Below, piece after piece: positions 239 through 57,109 of a DNA stretch of 64,000 nt. Source of the stretch: Pseudomonadota bacterium (GTDB lineage: Bacteria; Pseudomonadota; Alphaproteobacteria; RF32; CAG-239); NCBI GenBank assembly GCA_018362935.1, contig JAHALQ010000005.1, positions 62,490-126,489 on the forward strand. The letters are read 5' to 3'. How positions within the stretch are numbered: the stretch's first letter is position 1; every line of letters starts with the position of its first letter. The notes beneath the pieces are model-generated. The model was not told the DNA's origin, did not search any database, and saw only the letters and a program-made list of their open reading frames with translations. A program made the translations under genes and the position numbers.

Positions 239-1249
239 ATGTCAGAAAACTTGTCCACATTGTTGCTCGAATGGTATGCCGCCAACGGCCGTGACCTGCC
301 CTGGCGGGTTAAAGGCGGCGCGCACCCCAACCCGTACGTTATCCTTGTTTCCGAATTTATGCTGCAGCAAACCACCGTTAAAACGGTTATTCCTTATTTC
401 CATCGTTTTATGGAACGCTTTCCGACAGTCAGCAGCCTCGCCGAAGCGTCTGTCGAAGACGTTTACCAGTACTGGCAGGGCTTGGGATATTATTCGCGGG
501 CGCGTTCTTTGCACGCCGCAGCCCGCATGATTGCCGAAGACTGCGGCGGAATTTTTCCGCAAACCCGCGAGCAAGTGCTCAAGCTGAAAGGCGTCGGCCC
601 CTATACCGCATCCAGCCTGCTGGCACTTGGCTTTAATCTGCCCGAAACCGTCATTGACGGCAACGTTATCCGCGTCATCTGCCGCCTTTGTCATTTTACC
701 GAACCGGCAGCTGAAATTATGGAAAAGATAAAACAAAAAGCTGCGGCTCTGACTTCCCGCCGGCATCCCGCCGACTACGCCTCCGCCATAATGGATTTGG
801 GCGCAACCGTCTGCACCCCCAAGAAACCGCTGTGCCTTGTCTGCCCGTGGCAGAAACACTGCCTTTCCTGCGGCAAAGCCGATGTTGAAAATATCCCTCT
901 CCGCTCCAAAATCGCAAAGAAAGAAAAACAGGGAATAGTCTACCTTATTACCAATTCCCCGGGGCAGATATATATCCGTAAGCGTATCGAAAAAGGACTG
1001 TTGTCCGGACTATGGGAATTCCCCTGGTCAGAAGATGACAAACCTTTGCCCGGCGCTGAAGATACCGGCAGCTCAGTCACCCACGTGTTTACCCACATCA
1101 AACTCCGGCTTAAAATTTATAAGCTTGAAAAAGAATATTCCGGCGACGGTATCTTTATTGCGCCGGACGAGCTGGATAACTTCCCGCTCTCAACCTTAAT
1201 GAAAAAAATCTGGACGCAGATTTCCTGCCGGTCTAAGGACGCCAAGTGA
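239..1249 (+). CDS. mutY: A/G-specific adenine DNA glycosylase MutY
   Basis: HhH-GPD glycosylase core (LLLEWYAANGRDLPWR, PYxILVSEFMLQQT, GVGPYTA), C-terminal 4-Cys cluster (CTPKKPLCLVCPWQKHC) and NUDIX-like tail; the track ORF begins at GTG 161, the first ATG is at 239. Confidence 0.85.
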   Translation: MSENLSTLLLEWYAANGRDLPWRVKGGAHPNPYVILVSEFMLQQTTVKTVIPYFHRFMERFPTVSSLAEASVEDVYQYWQGLGYYSRARSLHAAARMIAEDCGGIFPQTREQVLKLKGVGPYTASSLLALGFNLPETVIDGNVIRVICRLCHFTEPAAEIMEKIKQKAAALTSRRHPADYASAIMDLGATVCTPKKPLCLVCPWQKHCLSCGKADVENIPLRSKIAKKEKQGIVYLITNSPGQIYIRKRIEKGLLSGLWEFPWSEDDKPLPGAEDTGSSVTHVFTHIKLRLKIYKLEKEYSGDGIFIAPDELDNFPLSTLMKKIWTQISCRSKDAK

Positions 1250-1820
1250 CGATTCCGTTTTGCGGATGAGTTTGGCGCCATTTTATAAACTCATCATAAG
1301 TCCGCACATTATCCCGCATGACCGCCATGTAATATTCGATTCCCGGTATCTTGACATCATCAGGCGTTTGCCATTTCAGACGCAGGATTGTTTCTTTCAG
1401 CTCCGGTGTTAACGCAGCGACAATACGCGCCGCCATATCCTCAAAATAACCGTCATAGGTTGAGCCTTTGACAATATGCATCATGTCAATCTGCCATAAT
1501 TGCCCGTCATAATCTTCATACCACGCATGCCATTCCAGACAGCTGTCTTCTTCGTCCAACAGATTGGCATATTCGATTCTTTTAATGCGCGGTTTATCCG
1601 CCAGCCGGGCTATTGCCCGAAAACTGTCGGCAAGTTTCAGCTCCGGCGTATAAATATGAAAATCAATGTCACGGTGCTTCATCAGCAGCCCCATTTTGAG
1701 AGAACCGATTAAATTGACTTCCGCGCCGATTTCCTCCCAACATTCGATGACCCCGCTTCCGGCAATCACCAGCCGGGCTTTTTCCTGATTTTCTTCGGCC
1801 AGCCGCAAAATGTCTTCCAT
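1233..1820 (-). CDS. hypothetical protein, nucleotidyltransferase-like (DUF4269-like)
   Basis: Internal Met MEDILRLAEE taken as start; motifs GSxxxG and HxDIDFHIY resemble a minimal nucleotidyltransferase fold; converges on mutY with a 17-nt overlap. Confidence 0.4.
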   Translation of the reverse strand: MEDILRLAEENQEKARLVIAGSGVIECWEEIGAEVNLIGSLKMGLLMKHRDIDFHIYTPELKLADSFRAIARLADKPRIKRIEYANLLDEEDSCLEWHAWYEDYDGQLWQIDMMHIVKGSTYDGYFEDMAARIVAALTPELKETILRLKWQTPDDVKIPGIEYYMAVMRDNVRTYDEFIKWRQTHPQNGIVTWRP

Positions 1821-1881: not shown

Positions 1882-3342
1882 TTACCCGATTTTGGAATCT
1901 TTGGTAAGCTGTTCGCCGGTCTGGGCATAAGCGTCAACCGCGCGCGCCGCTTTCTTGGACAGGGCGATACAGCCCGGACCGGAAACACAGCCGCCTTCGC
2001 AGCACATAACTTCCAGCATATTGTTCTCACCGCCTTTGGCCGCATAGCGCTTAAGCAGTTTGATGTTCTCCTTGGTCAGGCCGTCAACCTTTTCGGGACG
2101 GATGTCAATGCTGTCGCCGACCAGACTCGCCACCGCTCCGGCCACGCCGCCGGTAACCGGAAACTGGCGTCCCTGGGCATGCGAAAGCTTACCGAACGGA
2201 ACTTCTTCGCATTCGTCAACATTAATACCGGAAGCAACCAGCATCGCGCCAAGTTCTTCGAAAGTCAGGACATAATCAACGTTCGGATCCCACTCCGCCT
2301 CGGCGCGTTTGGCCAGACACGGGCCGACAAACACGGCAACGCATTCGGGACATTCCTGTTTAACCAGCTCCGCCGTATAATACATCGGCGTTTTGGTGTC
2401 CGAAACAAACGGGCGGATTTCCGGAATATGCACCTGTGCCGCACGGAAATAGGCCGGACAGCAGGAAGTTGTCATAAAAGGCTGACCATGCTCCATTCTC
2501 TCGACAAACTCGGCGGCTTCTTTCTGCGTGGTAATATCGGCGCCGACGGCAACTTCAATCACATCGGCAAAACCGAATTTTTTCAAAGCGCCGGCCAGAT
2601 TATTGAGCGAACCGGGAAATTGCCCGGCAATCGCCGGCGCCAGCATGGCCACGACTTTTTTGCCGGTTTCTTTAATCTCGCGCATAACGTCAATCATTTG
2701 CGAACGCTCGACAATGGCGCCGAACGGGCACGATGCCAGACATTTGCCGCAGGAAATACATTTTTCGGTATCAATATGTTCTTTGCCGAATTCGTCCTTG
2801 GTTATCGCGCCGACCGGACAGGCCTCTTCGCACGGAACCGGAATTTTAACGACGGAATGATACGGGCAGACCTCAAAACACTTGCCGCAGTTGACGCATT
2901 TGTCCGGATCAATATGGGCGCGCCCTTTGACAATCGAGATGGCTTCTTTCGGGCAGTTCAGGCGGCAGGGCTGCGCAAAACAGCCGCGGCAGACATCGGT
3001 AATCACATACTGCGATTTCACACAGGCCGAACAGGCAATATCAATGACCGACAGTTTGTTTTTCGGCGCCTCTTTGCGTTCAAGCGCCTGTTCGCCGTAT
3101 TCTTTGAGACTGGTCAGCTCGTCCTGCTCTTCTTCCGGACAATGCCCCAGACCGGCCATACAGCGGTACTTGAGCACCGCGCGGTCTTTATAAATACAGC
3201 AGCGGCTGGGCTGCATTTCTTTGGGGCGCAGTTCCAGCGGGATTCTGTCCGCATTGGCAAATTTATCATGCAAATAGCTTTCGGCCAGTTTAATCAAAAT
3301 TTTGGTACGCATTAAGTTCGCGTTATTCTTAGGTATCAGCAT
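1882..3342 (-). CDS. hydA: [FeFe] hydrogenase, catalytic-type H-cluster domain with two N-terminal 4Fe-4S ferredoxin motifs
   Basis: Ferredoxin motifs CVNCGKCFEVCP and CISCGKCLASCP; H-cluster motifs L1 FMTTSCCPAYF (proton-relay Cys retained), L2 VGPCLAKRAE, L3 EVMCCEGGCVSGPGC; last gene of the Fd-hydS-PP2C-Fd-hydA operon. Confidence 0.85.
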   Translation of the reverse strand: MLIPKNNANLMRTKILIKLAESYLHDKFANADRIPLELRPKEMQPSRCCIYKDRAVLKYRCMAGLGHCPEEEQDELTSLKEYGEQALERKEAPKNKLSVIDIACSACVKSQYVITDVCRGCFAQPCRLNCPKEAISIVKGRAHIDPDKCVNCGKCFEVCPYHSVVKIPVPCEEACPVGAITKDEFGKEHIDTEKCISCGKCLASCPFGAIVERSQMIDVMREIKETGKKVVAMLAPAIAGQFPGSLNNLAGALKKFGFADVIEVAVGADITTQKEAAEFVERMEHGQPFMTTSCCPAYFRAAQVHIPEIRPFVSDTKTPMYYTAELVKQECPECVAVFVGPCLAKRAEAEWDPNVDYVLTFEELGAMLVASGINVDECEEVPFGKLSHAQGRQFPVTGGVAGAVASLVGDSIDIRPEKVDGLTKENIKLLKRYAAKGGENNMLEVMCCEGGCVSGPGCIALSKKAARAVDAYAQTGEQLTKDSKIG

Positions 3343-3371
3343 TTATTTCAAACTCTTCAGTATCTATATCA

Positions 3372-3641
3372 TTAACAGCTTTTTTTAATTTCTTCGCGGA
3401 TTTTATTGACGACCTTTTCATAGGTGGCTTCTTCAACCAGTTCGTCATTGACAAAAACAAACGGACCGTTGTTATATTTTGTTTTAACGTCCTTGCATAA
3501 ATTCATGCACCGCTCTTCAATAATTTCGATATGATCTGCAATATCAGCCGGCGCATTAAATTCCAATGACTGGATTTGGGCGGCTCCCATAACAAAACAG
3601 GAAGTGCCGACGCAGATTCTAACTCTAACTTTGTTTGCCAT
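3372..3641 (-). CDS. thioredoxin-like [2Fe-2S] ferredoxin (NuoE/HydC-fold small protein)
   Basis: 89 aa with C-x4-C (CVGTSC) and C-x3-C (CMNLC) separated by about 40 aa; RBS AAAGGA 9 nt upstream. Confidence 0.65.
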   Translation of the reverse strand: MANKVRVRICVGTSCFVMGAAQIQSLEFNAPADIADHIEIIEERCMNLCKDVKTKYNNGPFVFVNDELVEEATYEKVVNKIREEIKKSC

Positions 3642-3658
3642 CTCTCAAAAGTCCTTTT

Positions 3659-4834
3659 CTATATGTATTTGACACTAATTTCTTTCAGGTATTTGTCCTG
3701 CAAAATCCTGAATATCTTTTTCACAATATTGCGTCGGATTTCAAGCTCCATCGGCAAATTGGGATCCTGGTGGGCGATGTTGATTTTGGTACCGACCACA
3801 AAATCAATCTTGTCGCTGTCCAACAGCAGTTTGGCCAGCCGGGTCGCCCCGTTGTTTTTATCGGCATCAATGCCTTCTTTTAGCATACGGTACACATCAG
3901 TCAAGGTTAAAATTCCTTCCGTGACCAAATCAATGCCTTCCATTGTTGAACACATCGGGATTTTTTCGTCAAAAGACGTCTTGTCAATCTCGCATTTCAG
4001 ACAAAGTTCACGCTCGATAATATTGGCCGTTGTGCCGCCGCAGATTGCCGTCTTGCCGTCATAAGCAGAAACCAATTCGGCAAATTCGGCGTCGCGTTTT
4101 TCGTCAAACGGAGGGCCGGTCAAAACCAGCAGCTTGCGCGGCTTACGGAAATACAGCACGGTGCAGCTGATATCGTCGCCGGCTTTCTTGTCAACTTCTT
4201 TGCTTAAGGCTTCCTGCACAATCGCATGCGCCAAATCGCTGGCAGAAATTGTCGGGTTCCTGCGGATTTTCTCCAGCACGAAGTCCAGACAACCCTGCCG
4301 CTGCCAGCCCAGCGGATAAAGCCGGTTGCCCAGCCCGGCCTGCGTCACCCCGTCCGACATCAGAATAATCCGGTCTTCTTCCTGATTCGTCAGCTGCGAT
4401 ATATTAATTGTCCGGTCTTTCCACTTTTCGGAATATATCTCGCGGTAACGTACATTGACGGCCTTGTCGTCGCGGATAAACATAAAAGGCGGGTTGTCCA
4501 TCTCGAATATGCGCGTTTTGCCGTCGAGCTGTGTATCCACAACCGAAAAAGTCGCATAGCTGATTTTACGAATCTGACAGACCGGCAGCGCGTCCATCAT
4601 AACTTCCGACGAATGCATCAGTTCCATATTGCTTTCGACAAACTTCATTGCCATCCGCGTTGTCATCGATGACAGGATATTGGCTTTGACGCCGCTGCCC
4701 AGCCCATCGGACAGTATGGAAATAATCCGGCGCTCTTCGGGGATCTTTTTGGAATACACCGTGTCGCCGAAACAATCTTCGCCGTGTTTCTGCTGCTGCG
4801 CCGAACCGATTTCGATAAATAAAGAGTCGCTCAT
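3659..4834 (-). CDS. PP2C-family (SpoIIE/RsbU-like) serine phosphatase with a ~175-aa C-terminal domain of unknown function
   Basis: N-terminal PP2C motifs (GEDCFGD ... ILMSDGV ... GDDISCTVLYF); the C-terminal part (CGGTTANIIERELCLKCE...MCSTMEGIDLV) matches no domain I recognise; 3 nt downstream of hydS. Confidence 0.7.
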   Translation of the reverse strand: MSDSLFIEIGSAQQQKHGEDCFGDTVYSKKIPEERRIISILSDGLGSGVKANILSSMTTRMAMKFVESNMELMHSSEVMMDALPVCQIRKISYATFSVVDTQLDGKTRIFEMDNPPFMFIRDDKAVNVRYREIYSEKWKDRTINISQLTNQEEDRIILMSDGVTQAGLGNRLYPLGWQRQGCLDFVLEKIRRNPTISASDLAHAIVQEALSKEVDKKAGDDISCTVLYFRKPRKLLVLTGPPFDEKRDAEFAELVSAYDGKTAICGGTTANIIERELCLKCEIDKTSFDEKIPMCSTMEGIDLVTEGILTLTDVYRMLKEGIDADKNNGATRLAKLLLDSDKIDFVVGTKINIAHQDPNLPMELEIRRNIVKKIFRILQDKYLKEISVKYI

Positions 4835-4837
4835 CGG

Positions 4838-6619
4838 CTAAAACTTCCTCTCGGTCGAATTGGTACGGATTTTAACCCCCTCGTTCTCGCGATCGTTCAC
4901 GGCATAGTCTTTGGCGATAGAACGCAAAAGCACTTCCGTTTCAGCCATGTGCTCGCCCAGAGTGCATGCAATCTGCTGAACAGTCGCCAGATTCTTATGG
5001 ATAACTTCCTTTGCCCTTTCGGCAATCTGCTCTTTGTGCATCTCGGCGTTGGTCACATCTTCGATAATGCCGCCGACGCTTTGTTTCTTATCGATATTAA
5101 AGACCACCACGTCAAACATCTTGTCTTCGTGGCGGACATGCTCTTTGTGAATATCCTGTTCCAAATCCAGCGACGCCGTAAACAGATTGGTAAAGCTGAC
5201 AAAATCGCGCAGATTGGCACCGTACAGATTGTTGTAGTCATAAATTTCGGCATGTTCTTCCTCGTTCCAGAACGTATCGCGGAACTGGTCGTTGTATTCC
5301 ATGATATTGAGCTTGGCATCGGCAATTACAATCGGCGACGGAATGCAGCGGATAAGCGCGTTGGCTTTGCGCTGCGCCTGATGTTTCATGTGCGAAACGC
5401 ACATTTCGGGCTCGGCCTTTCCTTCCAGCAACGCGCAGGCAAAATTGCGGCAGGTGTTATAACCGCAGCCGCCGCAGTTCAACTCGTCCTCAATGCTGTA
5501 TTTGCCGATTCTCGTCAGTACTTTGCGAATGTCGCTTTCCTCAAATTTGCGGTCCAAGCCGTTAATATCCTGCGACTTATAACTTTCGGCTATATTGTAC
5601 TGCGGTTTGCGTGAAGCGGCTTCGTCAAACGACGCGTTTTTGAGGATTTCCATTCTCTTTTGCAGGCCGGAAGCCTTGTTGCTGGTACAGGGGCCGGACA
5701 CGCAGCCGCCGTAACAGGCCAGGCATTCCAGAAAAGTCGGCCGGTTCAGGTTGTCGATGTCAATATGCGTCAGCTCGTCCTGCAAACTGTATATGCCGGT
5801 AATCTGCGCCATATAAACGTCTTTTGACAGATTATGCGGTTTGATGGTTTCAATCATACCGCCCTCAATCGGATAAGCGCTGCCTTCTTTAGCATTATCC
5901 AGGGCAAAAACGTCAAAGACGCCGGGCACCAATTCTTCCGGATTAATGTTTTCATCTTTCAGCCACTGGCGCAAATCCTCAAAACTCAGAGCCAAAGACA
6001 ACAGCTCCGGATGCCTGTCGGCTTCAAACTTTTTGGCAATGCACGGGCCGATAAAAACGGTTTCAACATTCTGTCCGAACTTTTCTTTAAGCATCCGGCA
6101 GTGAGCCAGCAGCGGCGAAGCCACCTGCGCCAGATACGGCGTCAGTTCCGGCAGATATTTCTCAACATATTCAACCACCGCCGGGCAGGCTGTGGAAATC
6201 ATCAGCCGGTTTTCGTTTCTGGCAACGGCATCTTTGAGCTGGCGGACGGTTTCGGCAGTCACTTCCTGCGCGCCGAGCGCCGTTTCGCTCACGCCTTTAA
6301 TCCCCAGCCGGCGTATTGCCGCTACAATCTGCTCCTTGGTATATTCGGGAAATTCCGTCACCCATGACGGCGCCAGCGACACATAAATCTCGCGATTGGA
6401 AGAAACCAGATATTTGGCGCGCGCCAAATCATTGCGCGGCTGCTTGGCGCTGGCCGGGCAGACTTCGTAGCAAATGCCGCAGGCGATGCACAGCTCCGGC
6501 ACAATCATCGCCGAATTGTCCTCAATCTTAATTGCCTTGACCGGGCAGCGGCGGACGCATTTATAGCAGTCCTGGCAATCGTTCTTAACGGTATGCAGCG
6601 GGAAGTCGCGATTAGACAT
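4838..6619 (-). CDS. hydS: putative sensory [FeFe] hydrogenase HydS (H-cluster domain + Cx2Cx4Cx16C + PAS)
   Basis: N-terminal 2x4Fe-4S motif (CYKCVRRCP, CIACGICYEVCP); L1 ISTACPAVV with Ala in place of the proton-relay Cys; L2 GPCIAKKFE; L3 ECLACYGGCVSGPC; then CGGCGYNTC-x16-C and a PAS-like domain; start overlaps the upstream ferredoxin stop (TAATG). Confidence 0.85.
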   Translation of the reverse strand: MSNRDFPLHTVKNDCQDCYKCVRRCPVKAIKIEDNSAMIVPELCIACGICYEVCPASAKQPRNDLARAKYLVSSNREIYVSLAPSWVTEFPEYTKEQIVAAIRRLGIKGVSETALGAQEVTAETVRQLKDAVARNENRLMISTACPAVVEYVEKYLPELTPYLAQVASPLLAHCRMLKEKFGQNVETVFIGPCIAKKFEADRHPELLSLALSFEDLRQWLKDENINPEELVPGVFDVFALDNAKEGSAYPIEGGMIETIKPHNLSKDVYMAQITGIYSLQDELTHIDIDNLNRPTFLECLACYGGCVSGPCTSNKASGLQKRMEILKNASFDEAASRKPQYNIAESYKSQDINGLDRKFEESDIRKVLTRIGKYSIEDELNCGGCGYNTCRNFACALLEGKAEPEMCVSHMKHQAQRKANALIRCIPSPIVIADAKLNIMEYNDQFRDTFWNEEEHAEIYDYNNLYGANLRDFVSFTNLFTASLDLEQDIHKEHVRHEDKMFDVVVFNIDKKQSVGGIIEDVTNAEMHKEQIAERAKEVIHKNLATVQQIACTLGEHMAETEVLLRSIAKDYAVNDRENEGVKIRTNSTERKF

Positions 6620-6888
6620 TACTTATCTCCGGAGTTCGAATTTTGGTTATTCTGATAGTGTTTTTCCAAAATATCGTACAGCATGCCGCTTTCGATATTA
6701 TTATACTCCACGCCGTCAATCGTAATATTCGGCCCTTTGGAGCATTGGTCACAGCAGCGCAGCCCGGTCAGTTCGACCTCGGCTGACAGGTTATGGCTTT
6801 CAAGAAAATTTTGGATTACCTGAAGATTTTTCGAATTTCCGCGTGCAAAACAGGAACTGCCCATACAAACTTTGATTGTCGAAGCCAT
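6619..6888 (-). CDS. thioredoxin-like [2Fe-2S] ferredoxin
   Basis: C-x4-C (CMGSSC) and CC-x2-C (CCDQC); start set at MASTIKV because GGAGG lies 6 nt upstream, and the track ORF start at 6912 falls inside the RBS; 89 aa, same length as the paralog at 3372-3641. Confidence 0.65.
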   Translation of the reverse strand: MASTIKVCMGSSCFARGNSKNLQVIQNFLESHNLSAEVELTGLRCCDQCSKGPNITIDGVEYNNIESGMLYDILEKHYQNNQNSNSGDK

Positions 6889-6920
6889 TTTTTCCTCCGG
6901 CTGATAAAACACTTGTAAAA

Positions 6921-6949
6921 ATTATATAATTAAGCTCCTCAAAACGCAA
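6921..6949 (-). promoter_or_regulatory. sigma70-like promoter for the hyd operon (TTGCGT-17-TATAAT on the minus strand)
   Basis: Reverse complement of 6921-6949 reads TTGCGT tttgaggagcttaatta TATAAT, about 30 nt upstream of the RBS and start at 6888. Confidence 0.35.
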
Positions 6950-7001
6950 CAGAAATAGTTAACGTCCGAAACATATTTTTACTTAGGAAAACATTGGTAA
7001 T

Positions 7002-7034
7002 TTGCTTGATATAAGCATAAAGCAAGATTATGAT
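7002..7034 (+). promoter_or_regulatory. candidate promoter (TTGATA-17-TATGAT) for the first GGDEF-EAL gene, overlapping inverted repeat TTGCTT-N12-AAGCAA
   Basis: -35 at 7006-7011, -10 at 7029-7034; inverted-repeat arms at 7002-7007 and 7020-7025, a possible operator in the divergent intergenic region. Confidence 0.3.
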
Positions 7035-7066
7035 AAAAAGCAAAATGTCAATCGCTGAGAAACAAA

Positions 7067-8347
7067 ATGGCACAAGCAAACAGATTTGTAGCTGAAAAAA
7101 ATTTACTGGACACGTTGGATCGCATTGCCCGCAATCAGGCGGCATATTCGGTTTTGTATGTCAGTTTGTCCAAACTCAAGCCCAAAAACCGCCATCCCGC
7201 CTTTATCAAAATCATTGCCAAACTGTTTGATGATCTGGTCGGTGCCGCCGAAGGTTCAATGTTTATCCTCAACAACGGCGATTTTGCCATTCTCGGCAAA
7301 AACATTACTGCTGAAATTGTCGCCGATGCGGTCGACAAACTGCGCAAAGGCCTTGCGTCAGACCCGATTTTGTTCAACAGCAACATCTCAGAATTTGCGC
7401 ACCTGTATAACTTTCCCGAAGATTTCTCAACTTTGTACGAGTATATCAGACTGCAGATTGACAATGCCAGGCAGCCCGATTTTTCAAACCTTAAATATCC
7501 TGTCGAAGCTTCGCAGATGGACGGCGTGCTGGCGCACCTGGACGCCATTAACGTTGCCGAAATCATCAAGCATCAGAGCGTCATCCGCGTTGAAAAAGCC
7601 AATCAGTTCAAAGTACTGTTTCAGGAATTCTTTGTCGCTGTCAAAGACCTTAGCACCCTGTATGACAAAAACATCGACCTGACCGCCAACAAATGGCTTT
7701 TTCTTTATCTGACGCAGGCGCTTGATAAAAAAACAATTGCTTCGTTTCAGGCTGCCGAAATAAAAAACTGGCCGGCGTGCATAAGCCTTAACCTCCATTT
7801 ATCATCCGTATTCACGACCGAATTCGACAATCTGGCCGGCAGCCTTTTCGCCCCGCAGCAGCAGATTATTGCCGAAGTCCAGATGATGGACGTATTCAAC
7901 CGGCTCGAAAGTTACTTTGAAGCCAGAGAAAAACTGCATGCGCAGGGAAACCGGATTCTTATAGACGGGCTGATTCCCGAAACTTTATCCCTGATAGACA
8001 TAAACCGCCTGCAGCCTGACTTGATTAAACTGTTCTGGAATCCGATGATGGAATATGACACGAACAATCAGGAGCTGCGTGACATCATCAGCCAATTCGG
8101 CAGCGATCGGATTATTCTGGCCAAATGCACCGACGACAAAGCGCTGCGCTGGGGAATTTCATACGGTATTCGCGCTTTTCAGGGGCCGTATGCCGATAAT
8201 CTGGAAACTGCCGTTATCCGCTCGCAATGCCCGGCCGCAGCCGCATGCACAGCGGCTGACTGCCTCAGGCGCCGCCGCCTGATTACCGGCGCCGCGCGCA
8301 GCCAGTGCAAACATATCGAACACCTGGAAAAACTGCTGGGACAATAA
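7067..8347 (+). CDS. degenerate GGDEF-EAL protein (both domains apparently catalytically inactive)
   Basis: N-terminal GGDEF-like fold with GGDEF replaced by NNGDF and the DxDxFK region by SLSKLK; C-terminal EAL-like fold with DDFGTG replaced by IDGLIP, KLFW in place of KID, AKCTDD in place of AEGVE, and a FQGPY tail. Confidence 0.55.
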   Translation: MAQANRFVAEKNLLDTLDRIARNQAAYSVLYVSLSKLKPKNRHPAFIKIIAKLFDDLVGAAEGSMFILNNGDFAILGKNITAEIVADAVDKLRKGLASDPILFNSNISEFAHLYNFPEDFSTLYEYIRLQIDNARQPDFSNLKYPVEASQMDGVLAHLDAINVAEIIKHQSVIRVEKANQFKVLFQEFFVAVKDLSTLYDKNIDLTANKWLFLYLTQALDKKTIASFQAAEIKNWPACISLNLHLSSVFTTEFDNLAGSLFAPQQQIIAEVQMMDVFNRLESYFEAREKLHAQGNRILIDGLIPETLSLIDINRLQPDLIKLFWNPMMEYDTNNQELRDIISQFGSDRIILAKCTDDKALRWGISYGIRAFQGPYADNLETAVIRSQCPAAAACTAADCLRRRRLITGAARSQCKHIEHLEKLLGQ

Positions 8348-8348
8348 C

Positions 8349-9608
8349 ATGGAAGCCAAAACCGAAACCCGCACAATCCGAACCGATATAGCCGTCGCCG
8401 AATATCTGCGCAAGCTCGACGCGGCGGTCGGCGAATATGACGCGATTTATATCAACGTTTCCAAACTTGAAAGCAAAAACATCCGCGATTCCCACCGGCA
8501 GGAACTGGCCGACACTTTTGCAGCTTTCGTATCCAAAGCGATGGCGCGTTATTTTTGGTTCGCCAATGAAGACGTCATCGTCATTTACAACCGCCGCATC
8601 AAAGACGAAATTTTATCTTGCCTGGTCAAAATCCGTTTTATGTTTCACGACGACGAACTGCTCAAAAATTCCGACAATCTGGAAGCAATCGGCTTTGTCA
8701 AATTTTATAACATGGCCGATGACAAAAGAGAATTTTACCATCTTGTCAGCAAATTGAGCCACCAGCAAAACCCGGTCAAACTGCAGACAAAGAAGACCAA
8801 TCCCTTTGTTGTCAACACAATAGCTTCCTCTGCGCCCGCCAAACAGAAAAAACCGCTCACGCCGGACATTTTGGCGCGCGTTCAAAAAATACTGTCCGTC
8901 GCAGATTTTTCCAGCTTTATCCGCCGTCAGGCAATCTGCGCGGTCATCGGAAAATCGGCGCCGCTGCGTGTCTTTGAAGAAGTTTATGTGTCGATTCCAG
9001 ATTTGCGCGAAATGCTGCTTCCCGACATTGACCTGGTCGCCAATCCGTGGCTGTTTTTGTCGCTGAGCGAAACGCTGGACAAACGCGTTCTGGAAACGAT
9101 CGGACGCCATGACGACGGCTCGTTGATTGGAAATTTCAGCGTCAACATCAACGTATCGACGATTTTGTCAGATGAATTTCTGGCTTTCGACGAAAGTATC
9201 AGCGCTTCAATGCGCCCGAGCATCATTCTGGAGCTTCAGCTCGTAGATATTTTCAGCGACATCAAATCTTTTGTTCTGGCCAAAACTTTTGCCCAGGCGC
9301 GCGGATACAAAATCTGCATAGACGGCATCTCGGTTGACAAACTTAAATATCTTAATCGCGCCAATCTCAATTGCGATTTGATGAAGATTATCTGGCACCC
9401 GAGCTTTATGGACGTGATAAACGAAGACAAACATTTTATGGACTATGTTAACAAGGCAGAACGCGCCAAAATGATTCTCTGCCGGATTGACGACCCCTCC
9501 GCAATTGAAGTCGGCAACTCTCTGGGCATTAATCTTTATCAGGGTCGATATGTGCAAAGGCTCTTAAATGCCGTTGCGCCCAAAGTTCCTTTTACGCTTC
9601 GCAAGTAA
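8349..9608 (+). CDS. degenerate GGDEF-EAL protein, tandem paralog of 7067-8347
   Basis: Same architecture and colinear motifs (ANPWLFLSLSETLDK; ICIDGISVDKLKYLNR...KIIW; ILCRIDDPSAIEVGNSLGINLYQGRY); start lies 1 nt after the upstream stop. Confidence 0.55.
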   Translation: MEAKTETRTIRTDIAVAEYLRKLDAAVGEYDAIYINVSKLESKNIRDSHRQELADTFAAFVSKAMARYFWFANEDVIVIYNRRIKDEILSCLVKIRFMFHDDELLKNSDNLEAIGFVKFYNMADDKREFYHLVSKLSHQQNPVKLQTKKTNPFVVNTIASSAPAKQKKPLTPDILARVQKILSVADFSSFIRRQAICAVIGKSAPLRVFEEVYVSIPDLREMLLPDIDLVANPWLFLSLSETLDKRVLETIGRHDDGSLIGNFSVNINVSTILSDEFLAFDESISASMRPSIILELQLVDIFSDIKSFVLAKTFAQARGYKICIDGISVDKLKYLNRANLNCDLMKIIWHPSFMDVINEDKHFMDYVNKAERAKMILCRIDDPSAIEVGNSLGINLYQGRYVQRLLNAVAPKVPFTLRK

Positions 9609-17960: not shown

Positions 17961-18878
17961 TTAAATCTTTCTGCAAGAGGCATTTTCAACAAGTTTCGCA
18001 CACAGCTCCTCATACGATATGCCGGCATACTTCGCCTGTTCGGGCACCAGCGAAAGCGCTGTCATTCCTGGATTGGTGTTGATTTCGAGAAGCACGACGC
18101 CGTCTTCGGGATTGTAGCGCAGATCAACGCGCGAAACTGTGTTGCAGCCAAGGCGCTGGTGCAGTTTCTCGGCATAGGCCTTGCAGATTTCCGAAACTTC
18201 ATAAGGAACTTCAGCCGGCAGAATATGCTGGGTAACGCCGTCGGTATACTTGGCTTTATAGTCGTAAAACTCGTCAGAAGCTTTAAGTTCGGTCACAACA
18301 TAGGCCTTGTCTTCCAGACACATCACGGTCAGTTCCTGCCCGGGAATATATTTTTCTACCAAAATTTCACGGTCAAGATCTTTGTATTTAACCTTGAGCA
18401 AATCTTCCTGGTTATTGACAATAAACACGCCGACGCTCGAACCGTCGCAAACCGGCTTGACCACAAACGGCATAGATATAACCGTTCCGTTTTCAAAGAA
18501 GTTGCGCGCTTTCATTTTCTGGCTCGGCGCCACGCGGATACCGCAGCTTTTGGCAACCATTTTGGTAATATACTTGTCCATGCCGATGGCCGAAGCTTTC
18601 AGCCCCGAATGCGTATAAGGTATTTGCATCAAATCGAGCATGCCCTGAATTTCGCCGTCTTCGCCCCAGTTGCCGTAAAGCCCGTTAAACACGACATCAG
18701 GCTTTTCTTTTTTAAGAACGTCAATCAGTTTCCACACATCGGTAAAATCATGCGCGACGACATGATAGCCTTTGGACTCCAAAGCGTTGCAGATATCCTG
18801 CCCCGAACTCAGGCTGACCTCTCTTTCGGCCGACAATCCTCCCATCAAAACCAAAACTTTTTTAGACATTTCAGACAT
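17961..18878 (-). CDS. ddl: D-alanine--D-alanine ligase
   Basis: ATP-grasp fold with the N-terminal VLMGGxSxERxVSL motif. Confidence 0.9.
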   Translation of the reverse strand: MSEMSKKVLVLMGGLSAEREVSLSSGQDICNALESKGYHVVAHDFTDVWKLIDVLKKEKPDVVFNGLYGNWGEDGEIQGMLDLMQIPYTHSGLKASAIGMDKYITKMVAKSCGIRVAPSQKMKARNFFENGTVISMPFVVKPVCDGSSVGVFIVNNQEDLLKVKYKDLDREILVEKYIPGQELTVMCLEDKAYVVTELKASDEFYDYKAKYTDGVTQHILPAEVPYEVSEICKAYAEKLHQRLGCNTVSRVDLRYNPEDGVVLLEINTNPGMTALSLVPEQAKYAGISYEELCAKLVENASCRKI

Positions 18879-28383: not shown

Positions 28384-30741
28384 CTATTTTTTAGTAAAGG
28401 GATTTTCAACTTTTGACGTGCTGTCAACGGCAAAAGCCTTTTCTTCCAGCCACCATTCGTCCGACGCCGGTTTTGTTCCGCGTCCCCGTTTTTCATTATC
28501 ACCGTGCCATTTGTCAGAAATGTCGCTGGCCATAACGCTGTTAATGTCGGTTTCTTCCGGCATTTTGCTTTTCGCATCGTCATAAGCGGTATTCATAAAT
28601 TGTTTCAGTTCGGTTTCATCTTCAATGCCCAAATCCATGTCATTGAGGACTTCGTCGACCGTCGGAGTCCCCGCATCCTGAATATTGCGGCGGCTGATAA
28701 TCTGCGCATCCAAACCGTAACAAGCTTCTTTTATTGCCTTTTCCTTAAATTTTTCGTCTTTGATATAATGGATATTGCGCGCCAAAATCGGGCGGTTATA
28801 ATACCCTTCTGCCAAAACGACCTGATAATCTCTGGTTTTAATGCGCAAATTGCGTTTTGTTTCAAAATCTTTGGCCAGACGATAAAAATAATTGGCGTCG
28901 GCAAAACCTCTTTTATAACGCAGCGACCGCCGGTTATCCAACGAAATCTGCACCGACTTGGTTGCAAAAAGTGCCAGTTTTTTCAGTTGGCGGCTCATTT
29001 TTTTATTATCCTCCGCCAGAACGATTTTATAAGTGGAATTTGAAACGATTTCTTCAAGCGTTTCTTTGGTATAAGTATTTTCCACGCTGTTCAGGCTGTT
29101 GCACAACAGCAAAAAGGACGTGCGCATCGACGGCCCTTTGGCGACCGCTTCGGACAGGGTCCGCACTTTTAGCATCTGCCCGACATCATCAAGCACCACC
29201 AGAAGCGGAAACGCGCCTTTTGCCTGTCCCTCGATGATGCCCTGCTCCAAAATCAGTTCCATGAACATCCGGCTGACAAATTTGGCGCTTTTGGTGTTGG
29301 CGACCACATACACCGTCACCGGTTCCGGCCGGCCGGTTTCGTTGTTTTTGATACCGCGAAACTCCGACACGTCAAAATCGTTCATACCGGTTTTTTCGCG
29401 AATAACCTGGTTAATGAAACTTTTAAGCGGTTTAACCATACAGACAAAGACAATTTGCCGCTGCTGGCGGGACAAATACAAAAATTGTTCCAACCCGCGG
29501 ATAACATTATTGCCGTAATTAAACAAACCGGCTTCAACCACCAGGGTTTCAAGCCATTTTCGCCAATCGGCGCGATCCCCTTCGTCTTTAGAAGTCAGAT
29601 AATTCTGCAGCAGCCAGTCTGTCAGCATGCCCAGACACAAATCCTTCCCTTTCCATGAATCCGGAATACCGTCCCAGCTGCCGATCGGCACATAATCGTC
29701 CGGGCTGAATTCAGGCGAACGTTTCAGTTTTTCAATCGCTTTGTCCACACACGCACGCGGCATCAACAGATAATAGCTGAGCAAAACCTCACGCTCATCT
29801 TTCTTCAAAGAGTTTTTTTCCAGAATCTTATCCAGAAAATAATCATTGGCCATAGCCTGCGAAACTTTTGCCGTCAAAAATGCCAACATCGCGTTCATAA
29901 CATTTTCGCACAGCCAATACCAATAATTGCTGTCTTCATGCTCTTCGTCGGACAAAACCAGATAAGACGCGATTTTCTTAAGATAATCATCGCGTTTTTG
30001 TCCCTTTGGCGGCAGTCTGTCGATACTGAGCGGATTCCACTTAGGATAAAAAATCCCCTTGTCGGTATCATCGGCCAAATCCCAGTTAAAATAAAAAACC
30101 TTGCCGATTTCGGCACGGTGCCCGCTGGTATGGCGTGCCAAAGTACCGGCATTGTCAACCGCCAAAACGCTGACGTTGTCTGACCGCAAAATCGAAGGAA
30201 TGGCGACGGACGAGGTTTTTCCGCTGCCGGTTTCGCCGATGCAAAGTATATTTGAAGGGCGGCTGACACCCAGGACATAACTCTGAAAACGCCCCAGCAC
30301 CAGCAATATGCCTTTATGCAGACCCATTTTTTCAATATCGCCCAATTTAGCAAAATGAGTATTGAGAATATACCAGAAGTTAAAGGAATAAGAGCTTTTC
30401 ATAAAAGCAAAATAAAGCGCAAACAGCGACACCAGCGGCGCGCTCAGCGGCAGCAGCAGTATCCAGTTCAGGCTGTACGTCCGGAAACCGCGAACCAAAG
30501 CCTCCCACCAGCTTGCATAAACGGCAAAAATATGAAACGGGTTATCCCAAATGCCGAAATCGCCGTGCGTAAATAAATGCGCGTGCGCGCTGCCGTCCCG
30601 AAAAACAAACCAGTGCACCGAACCAAACAGGAAGACCGAAAAAAACATAAAGAACACAAACGTAAAAGCCAGCACTAAAATAATATTCAGGAGCGCTTTC
30701 TTTGGGCTGACTTCGTCTTCAAGTGTTAAATCTGTGGTCAT
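28384..30741 (-). CDS. type IV secretion/conjugation coupling protein (TraD/TrwB/DotL-like T4CP), 785 aa
   Basis: Two N-terminal transmembrane helices; Walker A GETGSGKTS with downstream LAVDNAG (the TrwB/TraD-type GKS/T P-loop rather than the VirD4 GKG form); Walker B-like LLVVLDDVGQM; long acidic C-terminal tail. Confidence 0.7.
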   Translation of the reverse strand: MTTDLTLEDEVSPKKALLNIILVLAFTFVFFMFFSVFLFGSVHWFVFRDGSAHAHLFTHGDFGIWDNPFHIFAVYASWWEALVRGFRTYSLNWILLLPLSAPLVSLFALYFAFMKSSYSFNFWYILNTHFAKLGDIEKMGLHKGILLVLGRFQSYVLGVSRPSNILCIGETGSGKTSSVAIPSILRSDNVSVLAVDNAGTLARHTSGHRAEIGKVFYFNWDLADDTDKGIFYPKWNPLSIDRLPPKGQKRDDYLKKIASYLVLSDEEHEDSNYWYWLCENVMNAMLAFLTAKVSQAMANDYFLDKILEKNSLKKDEREVLLSYYLLMPRACVDKAIEKLKRSPEFSPDDYVPIGSWDGIPDSWKGKDLCLGMLTDWLLQNYLTSKDEGDRADWRKWLETLVVEAGLFNYGNNVIRGLEQFLYLSRQQRQIVFVCMVKPLKSFINQVIREKTGMNDFDVSEFRGIKNNETGRPEPVTVYVVANTKSAKFVSRMFMELILEQGIIEGQAKGAFPLLVVLDDVGQMLKVRTLSEAVAKGPSMRTSFLLLCNSLNSVENTYTKETLEEIVSNSTYKIVLAEDNKKMSRQLKKLALFATKSVQISLDNRRSLRYKRGFADANYFYRLAKDFETKRNLRIKTRDYQVVLAEGYYNRPILARNIHYIKDEKFKEKAIKEACYGLDAQIISRRNIQDAGTPTVDEVLNDMDLGIEDETELKQFMNTAYDDAKSKMPEETDINSVMASDISDKWHGDNEKRGRGTKPASDEWWLEEKAFAVDSTSKVENPFTKK

Positions 30742-31886: not shown

Positions 31887-31968
31887 AAGCCAACCGTCCT
31901 TATATTCTTGCAACTTAACCTATATCATAAATTATCTTTTGCCATTTTACAAACAAATTATGACAAGC

Positions 31969-57105: not shown

Positions 57106-57109
57106 GGTC

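Follow-up and report, generated by a model that had tools for sequence, protein, structure and literature searches.

A five-gene operon with a probable H2-sensing [FeFe] hydrogenase, a protein phosphatase and a second hydrogenase in a gut-associated alphaproteobacterium

Operon layout and host

When two [FeFe] hydrogenases are encoded on either side of a protein phosphatase, the question arises whether the products form one enzyme or an enzyme with its own H2 sensor. The window, i.e., the whole 64-kb stretch of DNA that was analysed, belongs to an alphaproteobacterium, uncultured and gut-associated, that carries the label Rhodospirillales or 'Azospirillum sp.'. The alphaproteobacterial host proposed in the earlier note was borne out by the neighbouring ATP12, DUF465, CarD/CdnL, DUF525/ApaG and PBP2/RodA genes and by the MAG labels of relatives. 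Five genes described before as a minus-strand series with overlaps or gaps below 30 nt were all recovered as open reading frames. In order of transcription they encode Fd1, a thioredoxin-like [2Fe-2S] ferredoxin of 89 aa in the HfsA position (6619..6888); a HydS-type [FeFe] hydrogenase of 593 aa with group C / M2f architecture, a putative H2 sensor (4838..6619); an HfsC-type SpoIIE/PP2C phosphatase of 391 aa (3659..4834); Fd2, a second thioredoxin-like [2Fe-2S] ferredoxin of 89 aa (3372..3641); and HydB, a monomeric group B [FeFe] hydrogenase of 486 aa in the HfsD / HydA2 position (1882..3342). The genes are tightly coupled, with a 1-nt overlap followed by gaps of 3, 17 and 29 nt, and in the overlap, TAATG, the Fd1 stop codon runs into the HydS start. 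Independent metagenome contigs also yielded gene calls for identical proteins. The operon is real, and by its sequence it would combine a probable H2-sensing hydrogenase, a protein phosphatase and an H2-producing hydrogenase.

Gene boundaries near both ends of the operon were revised. The start of Fd1 had been placed at GTG 6912, but Fd1 most likely begins at ATG 6888, which has a GGAGG Shine-Dalgarno sequence 5 nt ahead and agrees with the 89-aa gene called on independent contigs. At the other end, a 270-aa ORF (1233-2045) overlapping the end of HydB was recognized as a 195-aa gene (1233-1820) that had been extended too far upstream. An AT-rich intergenic region of 178 nt (6889..7066) is common to the operon and a divergently transcribed EAL-like gene, and from its position it is presumed to hold the operon promoter. 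A consensus scan gave no sigma-70-type site on the minus strand of this region, and the overall count was not above that of shuffles.

The sensor-like hydrogenase HydS

The H-cluster domain of HydS (5690..6391, minus strand, as are all HydS segments below) was recognized by Pfam Fe_hyd_lg_C (1e-49), while no NCBIfam model for group A or group B was matched above its cut-off. Its motifs are intact, with STACP at residues 142-146, GPCIAK at 191-196 and CLACYGGC at 299-306. HydS also has two [4Fe-4S] motifs and a segment with Fer4-family matches (6446..6586). The position of the proton-relay cysteine (C299) is occupied by Ala144, that of M353 by Gly191 and that of M497 by Leu300. TmHydS has Ala, Gly and Ser at these positions (PMC10055695), so that the first two are common to both enzymes, whereas the third differs. 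Towards the C-terminus, residues 382-407 (5396..5482) carry the accessory cluster motif Cx2Cx4Cx16C, which has been defined for groups C and D (PMC8163306); it consists of C382, C385, C390 and C407, with C395 as an additional cysteine; PF04060 matched residues 380-408 with an E-value of 1.8e-9. Thus every sequence hallmark defined for the PAS-bearing sensory group C, M2f enzymes (PMC8163306, PMC10055695) is present, and the assignment of the longer protein as a group-C sensory HydS was upheld. The residue at the proton-relay site differs widely between orthologues that take the place of HydS, being A, S, D or C. Some of them, with SSCCP, retain the proton-relay cysteine, so that a purely sensory role need not apply to all members.

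The PAS domain, at about residues 424-536 (5012..5350), is divergent. Its presence was supported through aligned homologues and the family profile, but not by the window copy alone, which matched PAS_8 with an E-value of 0.081, under the Pfam threshold. PAS-family matches were obtained for 11 of 21 aligned C-termini of HydS homologues (best 3.3e-7), and the family profile, compared with the PDB, returned PAS-domain structures first, with DcuS (2w0n, E 0.0072) followed by CitA-type structures and Aer2. The AlphaFold model of this domain (pLDDT 52.7) was too poor for use. The PAS domain is followed by a segment (4886..5011) predicted, with low confidence, as a long helix, and within the HydS C-terminus no other part is as well conserved between phyla. 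Its consensus is A.EVI.KNL.TVQ.IA.LLGE..AETE..L.SI, and V, A, L-G-E and L are invariant in Alphaproteobacteria, Bacteroidales, Oscillospiraceae, Cloacimonadota and a Chloroflexi-labelled MAG. It is a candidate helix for signalling or docking.

Phosphatase, HydB and ferredoxins

As described before, a PP2C gene lies between the two hydrogenases, with HydS on one side and the hydrogenase with the catalytic proton-relay cysteine on the other. The SpoIIE/PP2C-type catalytic domain (residues 1-227, 4154..4834, minus strand) scored 38.8 bits against the Pfam SpoIIE cut-off of 25 and carries the metal-binding motifs GD (23-24), SDGLGSG (42-48), SDG (160-162) and DD (220-221). In alignments to the B. 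subtilis SpoIIE structures 3t91 and 5ucg the first three paired with the matching SpoIIE motifs; the alignment ends at residue 166, and DD, at the expected place of the fourth motif, was located by position only. The C-terminal domain (residues 228-391, 3662..4153, minus strand) is Rossmann-like alpha/beta, unclassified and without a Pfam model.

The shorter hydrogenase had been called HydA. It is a group B monomeric enzyme rather than a prototypical group A one, with 529.6 bits against the TIGR04105 cut-off of 450 (residues 6-459), and other members of its cluster bear the names 'monomeric [FeFe] hydrogenase' and, in IMG, 'group B1/B3'. Fe_hyd_lg_C matched with 2.2e-58. The motifs TSCCP (292-296) and MCCEGGC (446-452) were found as described, but the L2 motif, given as 'MPC-type', reads GPC in both hydrogenases (GPCLAK, 340-345, in HydB). 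The N-terminus is Cys-rich with two classical [4Fe-4S] motifs, and no small-subunit-like C-terminal domain was found in HydB. HydB is likely the ferredoxin-dependent H2-evolving enzyme.

Both ferredoxins matched 2Fe-2S_thioredx (PF01257, cut-off 24.8), Fd1 with 34.2 bits and Fd2 with 24.8, exactly at the cut-off. The cysteine ligands of Fd1, CMGSSC (8-13) and CCDQC (45-49), form a pattern similar to CVGTSC (10-15) and CMNLC (45-49) of Fd2.

Relatives and known systems

A scan of a genome collection gave 40 loci, 39 of them with Fd1 upstream of HydS. In related uncultured gut Alphaproteobacteria, 21 loci are covered by sequence over all five gene positions, and each has the complete cassette. 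Among the alphaproteobacterial loci the phosphatase is 70-98% identical in full-length matches. The order Fd1-HydS-PP2C-(Fd2)-HydB is repeated in Bacteroidales and Oscillospiraceae, the Cloacimonadota locus has Fd1-HydS-PP2C and that of the Chloroflexi-labelled MAG HydS-PP2C; the cassette is conserved across phyla. Fd2 is kept in 27 loci, 23 alphaproteobacterial and four from Bacteroidota, and missing in L029, L038 and L041; the Oscillospiraceae cassette has four genes and, unlike the window operon, no Fd2.

All ten loci of the second alphaproteobacterial subclade have adhE upstream of the cassette, co-directional with it and 24-57 nt away, and in two Bacteroidota loci adhE sits within the cassette; the gene is absent from the 64-kb window. 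In L026 and L042 NfnAB-like genes and a Rex-type CoA_binding-domain protein are encoded directly upstream. Sigma-54 activators and a Rex-type protein occur in Bacteroidales loci and are absent at the window locus.

The earlier note had compared the operon with known HydS/PP2C clusters and had not named the closest studied system, the four-gene hfsABCD / HydS-HydA2 unit. The layouts of hfsABCD of Thermoanaerobacterium and of HydS-HydA2 of Ruminococcus albus are like that of the window operon, which has one extra ferredoxin. In hfsABCD, with the same order, HfsB is a sensor-like hydrogenase, HfsC a Ser phosphatase and HfsD a HydA2-like hydrogenase; deletion of hfsB raises adhE expression and ethanol, for which intact hfsC and hfsD are needed (PMC5707799, PMC11837493). 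In R. albus hydA2 transcripts are 90-fold lower when a partner organism removes H2 (PMC10838669), and for Vallitalea a pairing of HydDB group C3 with group B is reported (PMC6163223).

Maturation and signalling partners

A search of the 64-kb window for HydE, HydF, HydG, an RsbW-type kinase, a Ser/Thr kinase and a STAS protein found none, as the earlier note had stated for the maturases and the STAS partner. Its claim that the window has no HATPase-type kinase had to be corrected, since a HAMP-HisKA-HATPase_c histidine kinase with an OmpR-type regulator is encoded at 55747-57805, about 50 kb from the operon. Maturation, which had been left open, is partly answered by a relative, though not by the genome of the window: at locus L025 the HydB orthologue is CDB53824.1, an entry of Azospirillum sp. 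CAG:239, and the genome of this organism is reported to encode HydE, HydF and HydG at other sites (PMC4967309). The earlier note's caution about the signalling output is shared by the literature (PMC11376134). In the subclade of the window, the genes beside the cassette include no conserved kinase, STAS protein or transcription factor.

Discussion

The earlier note had suggested horizontal transfer, and the cluster could be read as a recently acquired foreign island, possibly non-functional in an otherwise aerobic-type alphaproteobacterium. The absence of maturase genes within 64 kb would fit, as would the nearest outside relatives, which are Bacteroidales (37-43% identity for HydS, 45-46% for PP2C and 44-48% for HydB) and then the more distant Firmicutes-type sequences (29-34%); the cassette has thus crossed phyla at some time, likely by an old transfer. 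However, the composition of the operon is host-like, with GC 0.505 and GC3 0.605 against 0.503 +/- 0.022 and 0.584 +/- 0.031 in 30 flanking genes, and its codon-usage distance is within the host range. HydS and HydB give congruent trees, each with a single alphaproteobacterial clade of the same internal branching, which together with the composition argues against recent transfer. Moreover, every related alphaproteobacterial locus has the cassette, in at least two genomic contexts and even where HydS identity falls to 57%, the 64-kb window contains neither a tRNA gene nor an Rfam match, and relatives are reported with PFOR besides HydE, HydF and HydG (PMC4967309). A recent island is therefore very improbable.

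HydS might also report the intracellular redox state, i.e., the ferredoxin or NAD(P)H pool by way of Fd1 and the [4Fe-4S] clusters, rather than H2, with its H-cluster vestigial or a redox buffer. The translational coupling of a dedicated ferredoxin to HydS, the Rex-type and NfnAB-like genes adjoining the cassette in L026 and L042, and the wide range of residues at the proton-relay position speak for such a role. Against it, neither the window HydS nor any orthologue examined has lost one of the four H-cluster ligand cysteines (C145, C193, C302, C306) or the L2 lysine, the HydS enzymes characterised so far contain a bound [2Fe] subcluster and are reactive towards H2 (PMC8163306), and hydA2 of R. 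albus responds to H2 removal (PMC10838669). We regard it as unlikely, and since the ferredoxin pool is tied to the H2/H+ couple, H2 sensing and redox reporting overlap in practice. It is also quite improbable that the five products form one heteromeric 'Hfs' hydrogenase, in which HydS would serve as a second subunit of low activity, for catalysis or electron transfer, the phosphatase-like protein would be structural and no signalling would occur.

We therefore favour, as the likely reading, an hfs-type operon of H2 metabolism in which HydB works, HydS senses H2 and the signal passes through the PP2C phosphatase. The low-activity, sensor-like behaviour of HydS, the H2-dependent regulation of HydA2 and the link of hfsB to adhE are carried over from literature on homologues, and by inference we assign a direction to the signal, a substrate to the phosphatase and direct contact between the phosphatase and HydS. 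HydB would be the working enzyme, probably venting surplus reduced ferredoxin as H2, with Fd2 as its dedicated electron carrier or subunit. HydS, its canonical proton relay disabled by the change from Cys to Ala, would bind and slowly turn over H2, so that H2 pressure would be reflected in the redox state of the H-cluster and of the [4Fe-4S] cluster at the C-terminus; Fd1 may couple the ferredoxin pool into this readout. The PAS domain and the conserved helix at the C-terminus would relay the state of HydS to the co-translated phosphatase and so change its activity towards a target presumably encoded outside the cassette. The operon adds a new example, from an alphaproteobacterium, to a known cluster type, hfs / HydS-HydA2, and does not represent a new kind of system. 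In its host it may shift the balance of electron disposal between H2 and reduced end products, ethanol among them, through the expression or activity of HydB and, in relatives, of AdhE.

Operon Layout and Ferredoxins

All five minus-strand open reading frames listed in the earlier note were found in the window. They encode the ferredoxin Fd1 (6619-6888), a HydS-type protein of 593 aa (4838-6619), a PP2C phosphatase of 391 aa (3659-4834), the 89-aa ferredoxin Fd2 (3372-3641), and a second hydrogenase of 486 aa, here named HydB (1882-3342). The ATG of Fd1 at 6888 is preceded at 5 nt by GGAGG, and the GTG at 6912 is a less likely start. Fd1 and HydS are joined by a TAATG overlap of 1 nt, and the following gaps are 3, 17, and 29 nt; this spacing suggests that the five genes form one transcript. 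Consensus promoter and terminator scans of the window gave counts not above shuffled controls, and no transcript ends are therefore claimed. Independent metagenome assemblies (Logan SRR13622892 and SRR25947535) yielded gene calls for identical proteins in the same order. The tRNA and Rfam scans of the whole window returned no matches, so there is no RNA feature at any island border. The gene order is that of the hfsABCD type, i.e., a small gene, a PAS hydrogenase, a Ser phosphatase, and a ferredoxin-linked hydrogenase, with an extra ferredoxin gene.

Fd1 was matched by PF01257 at 34.2 bits (cut-off 24.8), which makes it a thioredoxin-like [2Fe-2S] ferredoxin of the NuoE/HoxE C-terminal type. 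Fd2 scored 24.8 bits, exactly at the cut-off, and its family match is thus marginal. Both proteins carry all four cysteines of the Cx4C...Cx3C ligand pattern.

Sensory-Type Sequence Features of HydS

The H-domain of HydS was recognized by Fe_hyd_lg_C (E 1e-49), and the four H-cluster ligand cysteines, C145, C193, C302, and C306, are all kept. The L1 motif reads STACP (142-146), with ligand C145 retained and Ala144 at the proton-relay position, L2 reads GPCIAK (191-196) with Gly191 at the position of M353 in CpI, and L3 reads CLACYGGC (299-306) with Leu at the M497 position. The L2 motif had previously been described as of MPC type; the sequence is GPC in both hydrogenases. Two ferredoxin-type [4Fe-4S] motifs, CQDCYKCVRRCP (15-26) and CIACGICYEVCP (44-55), and a C-terminal Cx2Cx4Cx16C cluster at 382-407, matched by the PF04060 "FeS" module (E 1.8e-9), complete the set.

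Putative sensory classes are characterized by two N-terminal clusters, a C-terminal Cx2Cx4Cx16C motif, loss of C299, and a small residue at M353; M2f (group C) is told from M2e (group D) by its PAS domain, and Ser or Thr is typical at M353 in group D (PMC8163306). HydS has the group C (M2f) features, among them the absence of the proton-relay Cys (C299 of CpI) and a small residue at M353. The PAS domain, together with Gly in place of Ser or Thr at M353, led us to reject group D (M2e). In a local neighbor-joining tree, which held no HydDB references and no bootstrap values, HydS stood apart from its group B paralogues. The subgroup would be C3, judging by the architecture and by the C3-x-B gene layout of PMC6163223, where a neighbouring pair from Vallitalea was classed by HydDB as group C3 and group B.

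The [4Fe-4S] pair, the H-domain, and the Cx2Cx4Cx16C motif are shared with TmHydS of Thermotoga maritima (group C, M2f) and TamHydS of Thermoanaerobacter mathranii (group D, M2e), for which H2 sensing and low turnover have been shown in part. The second-sphere positions of TmHydS are A131, G177, and S267, and among sensory enzymes the commonest residues at the first two are Ala (~43%) and Gly (~51%), respectively (PMC10055695). Ala144 of HydS thus stands at the place of A131, and Gly191 at that of G177, while the M497 position is Leu in HydS as in TamHydS and Ser in TmHydS. TmHydS and HydS also have the PAS domain in common. A PDB sequence search with HydS gave no solved close relative, group A enzymes being the best matches.

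The proton-relay residue was found to depend on lineage among the HydS orthologues. It is Ala in Alphaproteobacteria and in the Bacteroidales loci L026 and L042, Cys (SSCCP) in L028, L030, L031, L032, and L037, Ser in L029, and Asp in L034, and in Oscillospiraceae and a Chloroflexi-labelled MAG the L1 motif ends in CH, not CP. Two orthologues, from L014 (4897-6822) and L025 (10001-11920), measure 639-641 aa, i.e., ~46 residues above the 585-598 aa typical of other alphaproteobacterial copies.

PAS Domain and Following Helix

The AlphaFold model of HydS residues 404-593 reached a mean pLDDT of only 52.7 (29 sequences, >=78% identity) and was not used for fold searching. The PAS domain was assessed instead from Pfam matches of diverse homologues and from a family profile searched against the PDB. 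For the window protein alone, the PAS_8 match was sub-threshold (E 0.081). When the last 190 residues of 21 HydS orthologues from five phylum-level groups were aligned, PAS models of Pfam matched 11 of the 21 C-termini, with a best E of 3.3e-7. The family profile was run against all PDB sequences, and its six best matches were cytoplasmic PAS domains, headed by DcuS (2w0n, E 0.0072) and followed by CitA-type proteins and Aer2. We accept, at the level of the family, that HydS carries a divergent PAS domain, predicted at approximately residues 424-536. The domain is followed by a segment of ~40 residues with the consensus A.EVI.KNL.TVQ.IA.LLGE..AETE..L.SI. Most invariant columns of the whole C-terminal region, across phyla, fall within this segment, which is why we regard it as a candidate signalling or docking helix.

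HydB Is a Group B Hydrogenase

The second hydrogenase had been named HydA in the earlier note. Its catalytic motifs TSCCP and MCCEGGC are indeed kept, while the class had to be revised. HydB was matched by TIGR04105, "monomeric [FeFe] hydrogenase" (group B1), at 529.6 bits against the curated NCBIfam cut-off of 450, the match being full-length (residues 6-459 on model positions 3-459 of 462). With a score above the curated cut-off, HydB is assigned to group B and not to the prototypical HydA of group A. L1 (TSCCP, 292-296) retains the proton-relay Cys of a catalytic enzyme, L2 is GPCLAK (340-345), and L3 is MCCEGGC (446-452). The protein ends 34 residues past L3, without a C-terminal cluster motif and without a small-subunit-like C-terminal domain. 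Its cluster mates are named "monomeric [FeFe] hydrogenase" and "[FeFe] hydrogenase (group B1/B3)". At M353 it has Gly, a residue found there also in CpIII, another group B enzyme (PMC10055695).

The HydB orthologue of locus L025, 77% identical to that of the window, is the exact sequence of CDB53824.1, which Degli Esposti et al. (2016; PMC4967309, Table 1) list for Azospirillum sp. CAG:239 as its "type A [FeFe]-hydrogenase". The "type A" enzyme was described from gut Rhodospirillales MAGs, Azospirillum sp. CAG:239 and Acetobacter sp. CAG:977, and like HydB lacks the small-subunit-like C-terminus and has an extra N-terminal Cys cluster.

The Phosphatase

Residues 34-227 of the phosphatase form a SpoIIE-family PP2C domain (Pfam, 38.8 bits against a cut-off of 25). 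The motifs GD (23-24), SDGLGSG (42-48), and SDG (160-162) pair with those of Bacillus subtilis SpoIIE in the alignment with 3t91/5ucg, and DD (220-221) stands at the expected place of the fourth motif, located by position only, as it lies beyond the end of that alignment. The phosphatase is, from these motifs, probably active. No Pfam family was matched by residues 228-391; the domain was modelled with a pLDDT of 81.0 and a pTM of 0.80 as a Rossmann-like alpha/beta fold. In an exhaustive HMMER search of 1.84 billion cluster representatives it was met in 863 clusters only, almost always at approximately residues 225-395 of proteins of ~390 aa. The phosphatases of this kind, which we call HfsC-type, are a small family with a fixed architecture.

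The SpoIIE-family PP2C domain and its metal-binding Asp motifs are shared with RsbU, RsbP, and SpoIIE, which carry an N-terminal sensor where the cassette phosphatase has its C-terminal Rossmann-like domain. In RsbP, a PAS domain plus a helix are associated with the phosphatase. In the cassette, the PAS is on a separate protein, HydS. The partner-switching modules RsbU/RsbP-RsbV-RsbW differ further in that no STAS substrate or RsbW-type kinase is encoded nearby in the window.

Maturases, Kinases, and Other Genes of the Window

The called genes cover nearly all of the 64 kb, and their annotation with Pfam returned no HydE, HydF, or HydG, and no Ser/Thr kinase, RsbW-type kinase, or STAS protein. 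The absence of maturases and of a STAS partner had been noted correctly; the accompanying statement that no HATPase-type kinase is present was wrong, as a HAMP-HisKA-HATPase_c histidine kinase is encoded at 55747-57105 (minus strand), adjoined by an OmpR-type response regulator (57110-57805, minus strand). No evidence links this pair to the operon, ~50 kb away. Neither a STAS substrate nor a HATPase_c_2 anti-sigma kinase was found among the gene families shared by the flanks of 40 related loci (up to 10 kb on each side), and the phosphatase is thus not accompanied by the two partners of an RsbU/V/W-type module. A kinase of the type belonging to the Ruminococcus albus unit was found neither in the window nor within 10 kb of the cassette in related loci. 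For Azospirillum sp. CAG:239, HydE (CDB54134), HydF (CDB53483), and HydG (CDB54364) are listed in Table 1 of PMC4967309, and pyruvate:ferredoxin oxidoreductase is reported there for these metagenomic alphaproteobacteria.

Among the housekeeping genes, at 28384-30741 and 30747-31913 (both minus strand), there is a VirD4/TraG-type T4SS coupling protein (PF02534), which adjoins a pentapeptide-repeat protein and a domainless protein of 586 aa. An ORF of 475 aa (54308-55735, minus strand) has no Pfam match at E <= 1. At 17961-18878 (minus strand) the window encodes a D-Ala-D-Ala ligase, where the ENA contig L043, obtained through an identical protein 10 kb away, has at its corresponding end a gene with a PHP domain, so that gene content near 18.4 kb is not the same in the two assemblies.

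Distribution and Inheritance of the Cassette

The scan of a genome collection, with one genome per GTDB species, returned 40 loci. Twenty-five of them belong to uncultured, mostly gut-derived Alphaproteobacteria, with HydS 57-91% identical to the window copy, RGIG3920 standing at 91%; their labels include roe-deer caecum and rectum MAGs, "Azospirillum sp."/Azospirillaceae MAGs, and Candidatus Scatocola (Rhodospirillales in the NCBI taxonomy). The remainder come from Bacteroidales (37-43%), Cloacimonadota (34%), a Chloroflexi-labelled rumen MAG (31%), and Oscillospiraceae (29-30%). By tblastn of the window proteins, the five-gene cassette was complete in all 21 alphaproteobacterial loci that span the five genes, its parts intact and conserved as a unit, and the phosphatase was the best conserved large protein (70-98% in full-length matches). 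In Bacteroidales, the order Fd1-HydS-PP2C-Fd2-HydB was found in L028 and L032, an otherwise same cassette with adhE placed before HydB in L031 and L037, a cassette without Fd2 in L029, and Fd1-HydS-PP2C only in L026 and L042. The Oscillospiraceae loci have the four-gene form Fd1-HydS-PP2C-HydB.

The distribution shows that the cassette has clearly crossed phyla at some time, and the earlier note had proposed horizontal arrival in the present genome. We considered accordingly that the cassette might be a recent, non-functional import. Operon GC is 0.505 and GC3 0.605, against 0.503 +/- 0.022 and 0.584 +/- 0.031 for 30 other genes of the window, and codon usage was indistinguishable from that of the same genes. 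In the neighbor-joining tree of all H-domain proteins (without bootstrap), HydS-type and HydB-type sequences formed separate clades, within each of which the alphaproteobacterial sequences made up one group, next to Bacteroidota and with the same internal branching. Host-like composition and matching branching of the two hydrogenases do not bear out a recent arrival; in the alphaproteobacterial lineage the cassette is old, inherited as a unit, and not a recent island.

Between HydB and MutY lies an ORF of 195 aa (1233-1820, minus strand) with a weak NTP_transf_2 match (E 0.013), matched only in the window and in Logan contig L001, which is identical. In the relatives L004 and L006 MutY follows HydB directly, and the ORF therefore has the look of a strain-specific insertion.

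Gene Neighbourhood

The flanking ORFs of all 40 loci were clustered, and the families were checked with Pfam. A second alphaproteobacterial subclade comprises ten loci (L017-L024, L027, and L035), and all ten carry, 24-57 nt upstream of Fd1 and in the same orientation, a bifunctional adhE (at ~7.1-9.7 kb). In Bacteroidota, adhE is found inside the cassette (L031, 13380-16019; L037, 6573-9236), and in L028 an iron-type alcohol dehydrogenase lies just upstream (8414-9580). Seven Bacteroidales loci have a sigma-54 activator (GAF-PAS-AAA-HTH) upstream of the cassette, and L026 and L042 have NfnA/NfnB-like genes together with a CoA_binding-domain protein directly upstream. The CoA_binding domain is found in Rex-type redox regulators.

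In the subclade of the window, the upstream position is held by two paralogous proteins with degenerate EAL-like domains (7067-8347 and 8349-9608, plus strand), divergent from the operon. They are ~420 aa each and 27% identical, with unassigned N-terminal halves, and score 26.9 and 22.6 bits for Pfam EAL, below the cut-off of 31.3. In 15 related alphaproteobacterial loci the pair recurs at this upstream position, which it does not hold in the second subclade. A hybrid histidine kinase (HisKA-HATPase_c-receiver) stands between the pair and the operon in L013 (7454-9640), L015 (5033-7147), and L025 (8321-9574), the first with a periplasmic solute-binding domain. Both the pair and the kinase were considered as signalling output and were not adopted: neither persists in the second subclade or beyond the class, and the members of the kinase gene family have only generic HATPase domains in common.

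Discussion

The locus belongs to the hfsABCD/HydS-HydA2 cluster type (group C3 plus group B); what sets it apart is an added ferredoxin gene and a host among the Alphaproteobacteria. The hfsABCD operon of Thermoanaerobacterium was reportedly described by Shaw in 2009. In T. saccharolyticum and T. thermosaccharolyticum, three genes follow in the same order, HfsB, a PAS-bearing sensor-like [FeFe] hydrogenase, HfsC, a Ser phosphatase, and HfsD, a ferredoxin-linked HydA2-like hydrogenase (PMC5707799, PMC11837493). That operon opens with the small gene HfsA, "not aligning well" with known proteins (PMC11837493), whereas the window cassette opens with Fd1, clearly a thioredoxin-like [2Fe-2S] ferredoxin, and has a fifth gene, Fd2, between phosphatase and HydB. 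The hosts differ as well, a thermophilic Firmicute as opposed to a mesophilic gut alphaproteobacterium. The likeness is drawn from gene order and descriptions of the Hfs proteins (ACU11594-ACU11597 in T. saccharolyticum), with the four-gene Oscillospiraceae loci (29-34% identity) as Firmicute stand-ins. In the Ruminococcus albus 7 unit, according to summaries of Zheng et al. (2014) in PMC10838669 and PMC5707799, a putative H2-sensing PAS hydrogenase, HydS, which has an additional [4Fe-4S] cluster, shares a transcript with HydA2, a monomeric hydrogenase that depends on ferredoxin and whose expression tracks the H2 level; the unit is described there as plasmid-borne.

The hfsABCD operon is tied genetically to adhE and ethanol. 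In T. saccharolyticum, deletion of hfsA or hfsB raised adhE expression and ethanol yield, an effect requiring intact hfsC and hfsD, and deletion of hfsB raised hydrogenase activity (PMC5707799). In R. albus grown with an H2-removing partner, hydA2 transcripts were 90-fold lower, and ethanol was reduced as well (PMC10838669). The adhE genes beside or within the cassette of the relatives echo this tie and would fit, as a parallel, the hfsB-adhE regulatory link of Thermoanaerobacterium; in the window itself adhE is not adjacent to the cassette.

Taken together with the homologues, from which sensor behaviour and regulatory phenotype are borrowed, the parts suggest the following scheme as the most likely. 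HydB would evolve H2 from reduced ferredoxin, and HydS, with Fd1, would use its H-cluster and C-terminal cluster to report H2 pressure or the redox poise linked to it. By way of the PAS domain and helix the signal would reach the HfsC-type phosphatase, which would act on a phosphoprotein, so that electron disposal shifts between H2 and reduced products. The contact between HydS and phosphatase, the sign of the signal, and the target are what we infer in this scheme. We have considered, too, as a less likely reading, that the five products might make up a purely structural five-subunit enzyme. A HydS that senses redox state and not H2 was likewise considered and held to be less likely, though it overlaps with the redox poise allowed for in the scheme.

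The scheme of an H2- or redox-reporting HydS may be carried further, to a reading that we hold to be unlikely. HydS and the HfsC-type phosphatase would then form a self-contained two-protein H2-responsive switch, in which PAS domain and helix act in trans on the PP2C. Metabolic enzymes (HydB, AdhE, or a ferredoxin-linked enzyme) would be dephosphorylated directly, the output thus not being a transcription factor, and the family-specific Rossmann-like domain would supply a second input such as a nucleotide or redox cofactor. If true, the fixed cassette, now met also in a genetically simple alphaproteobacterial setting where neither kinase nor regulator is close by, would offer a compact system in which to solve the signalling problem of [FeFe] sensory hydrogenases.

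The locus holds no new component class, and for this lineage the group B enzyme has been published before. PMC4967309 treats that enzyme solely in the context of eukaryote origins, and a term search of the paper gave no mention of phosphatase or sensor, so the sensor-phosphatase partners and the operon context appear undiscussed there. For Alphaproteobacteria, neither the whole operon nor its sensor-phosphatase half appears to have been described, yet both are predicted by the family. New from the present analysis are the reclassification of the second hydrogenase as group B and the evidence for vertical inheritance of the cassette in the lineage. The HfsC-type phosphatases are defined here as a family, as is the conserved helix after the PAS domain, and adhE is shown to be linked to the cassette repeatedly among relatives.

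Fermenters are believed to use sensory [FeFe] hydrogenases to adjust their disposal of electrons to ambient H2. In the hfs-type module, a ferredoxin, a sensor, a dedicated PP2C whose C-terminal domain is specific to its family, and a group B hydrogenase make up a rigid unit, which is inherited across a whole lineage of uncultured gut Alphaproteobacteria, is found in Bacteroidales and Firmicutes as well, and is repeatedly wired to adhE in relatives. This rigidity and wiring point to candidates for the signalling step, namely the post-PAS helix, the C-terminal domain of the HfsC-type phosphatases, and AdhE or HydB as targets. The finding extends the known anaerobic H2 metabolism of gut Rhodospirillales, which features in the debates on mitochondrial and hydrogenosomal origin, and the way in which abundant gut bacteria handle H2 matters for the balance of gut gases and for the methane formed by ruminants.
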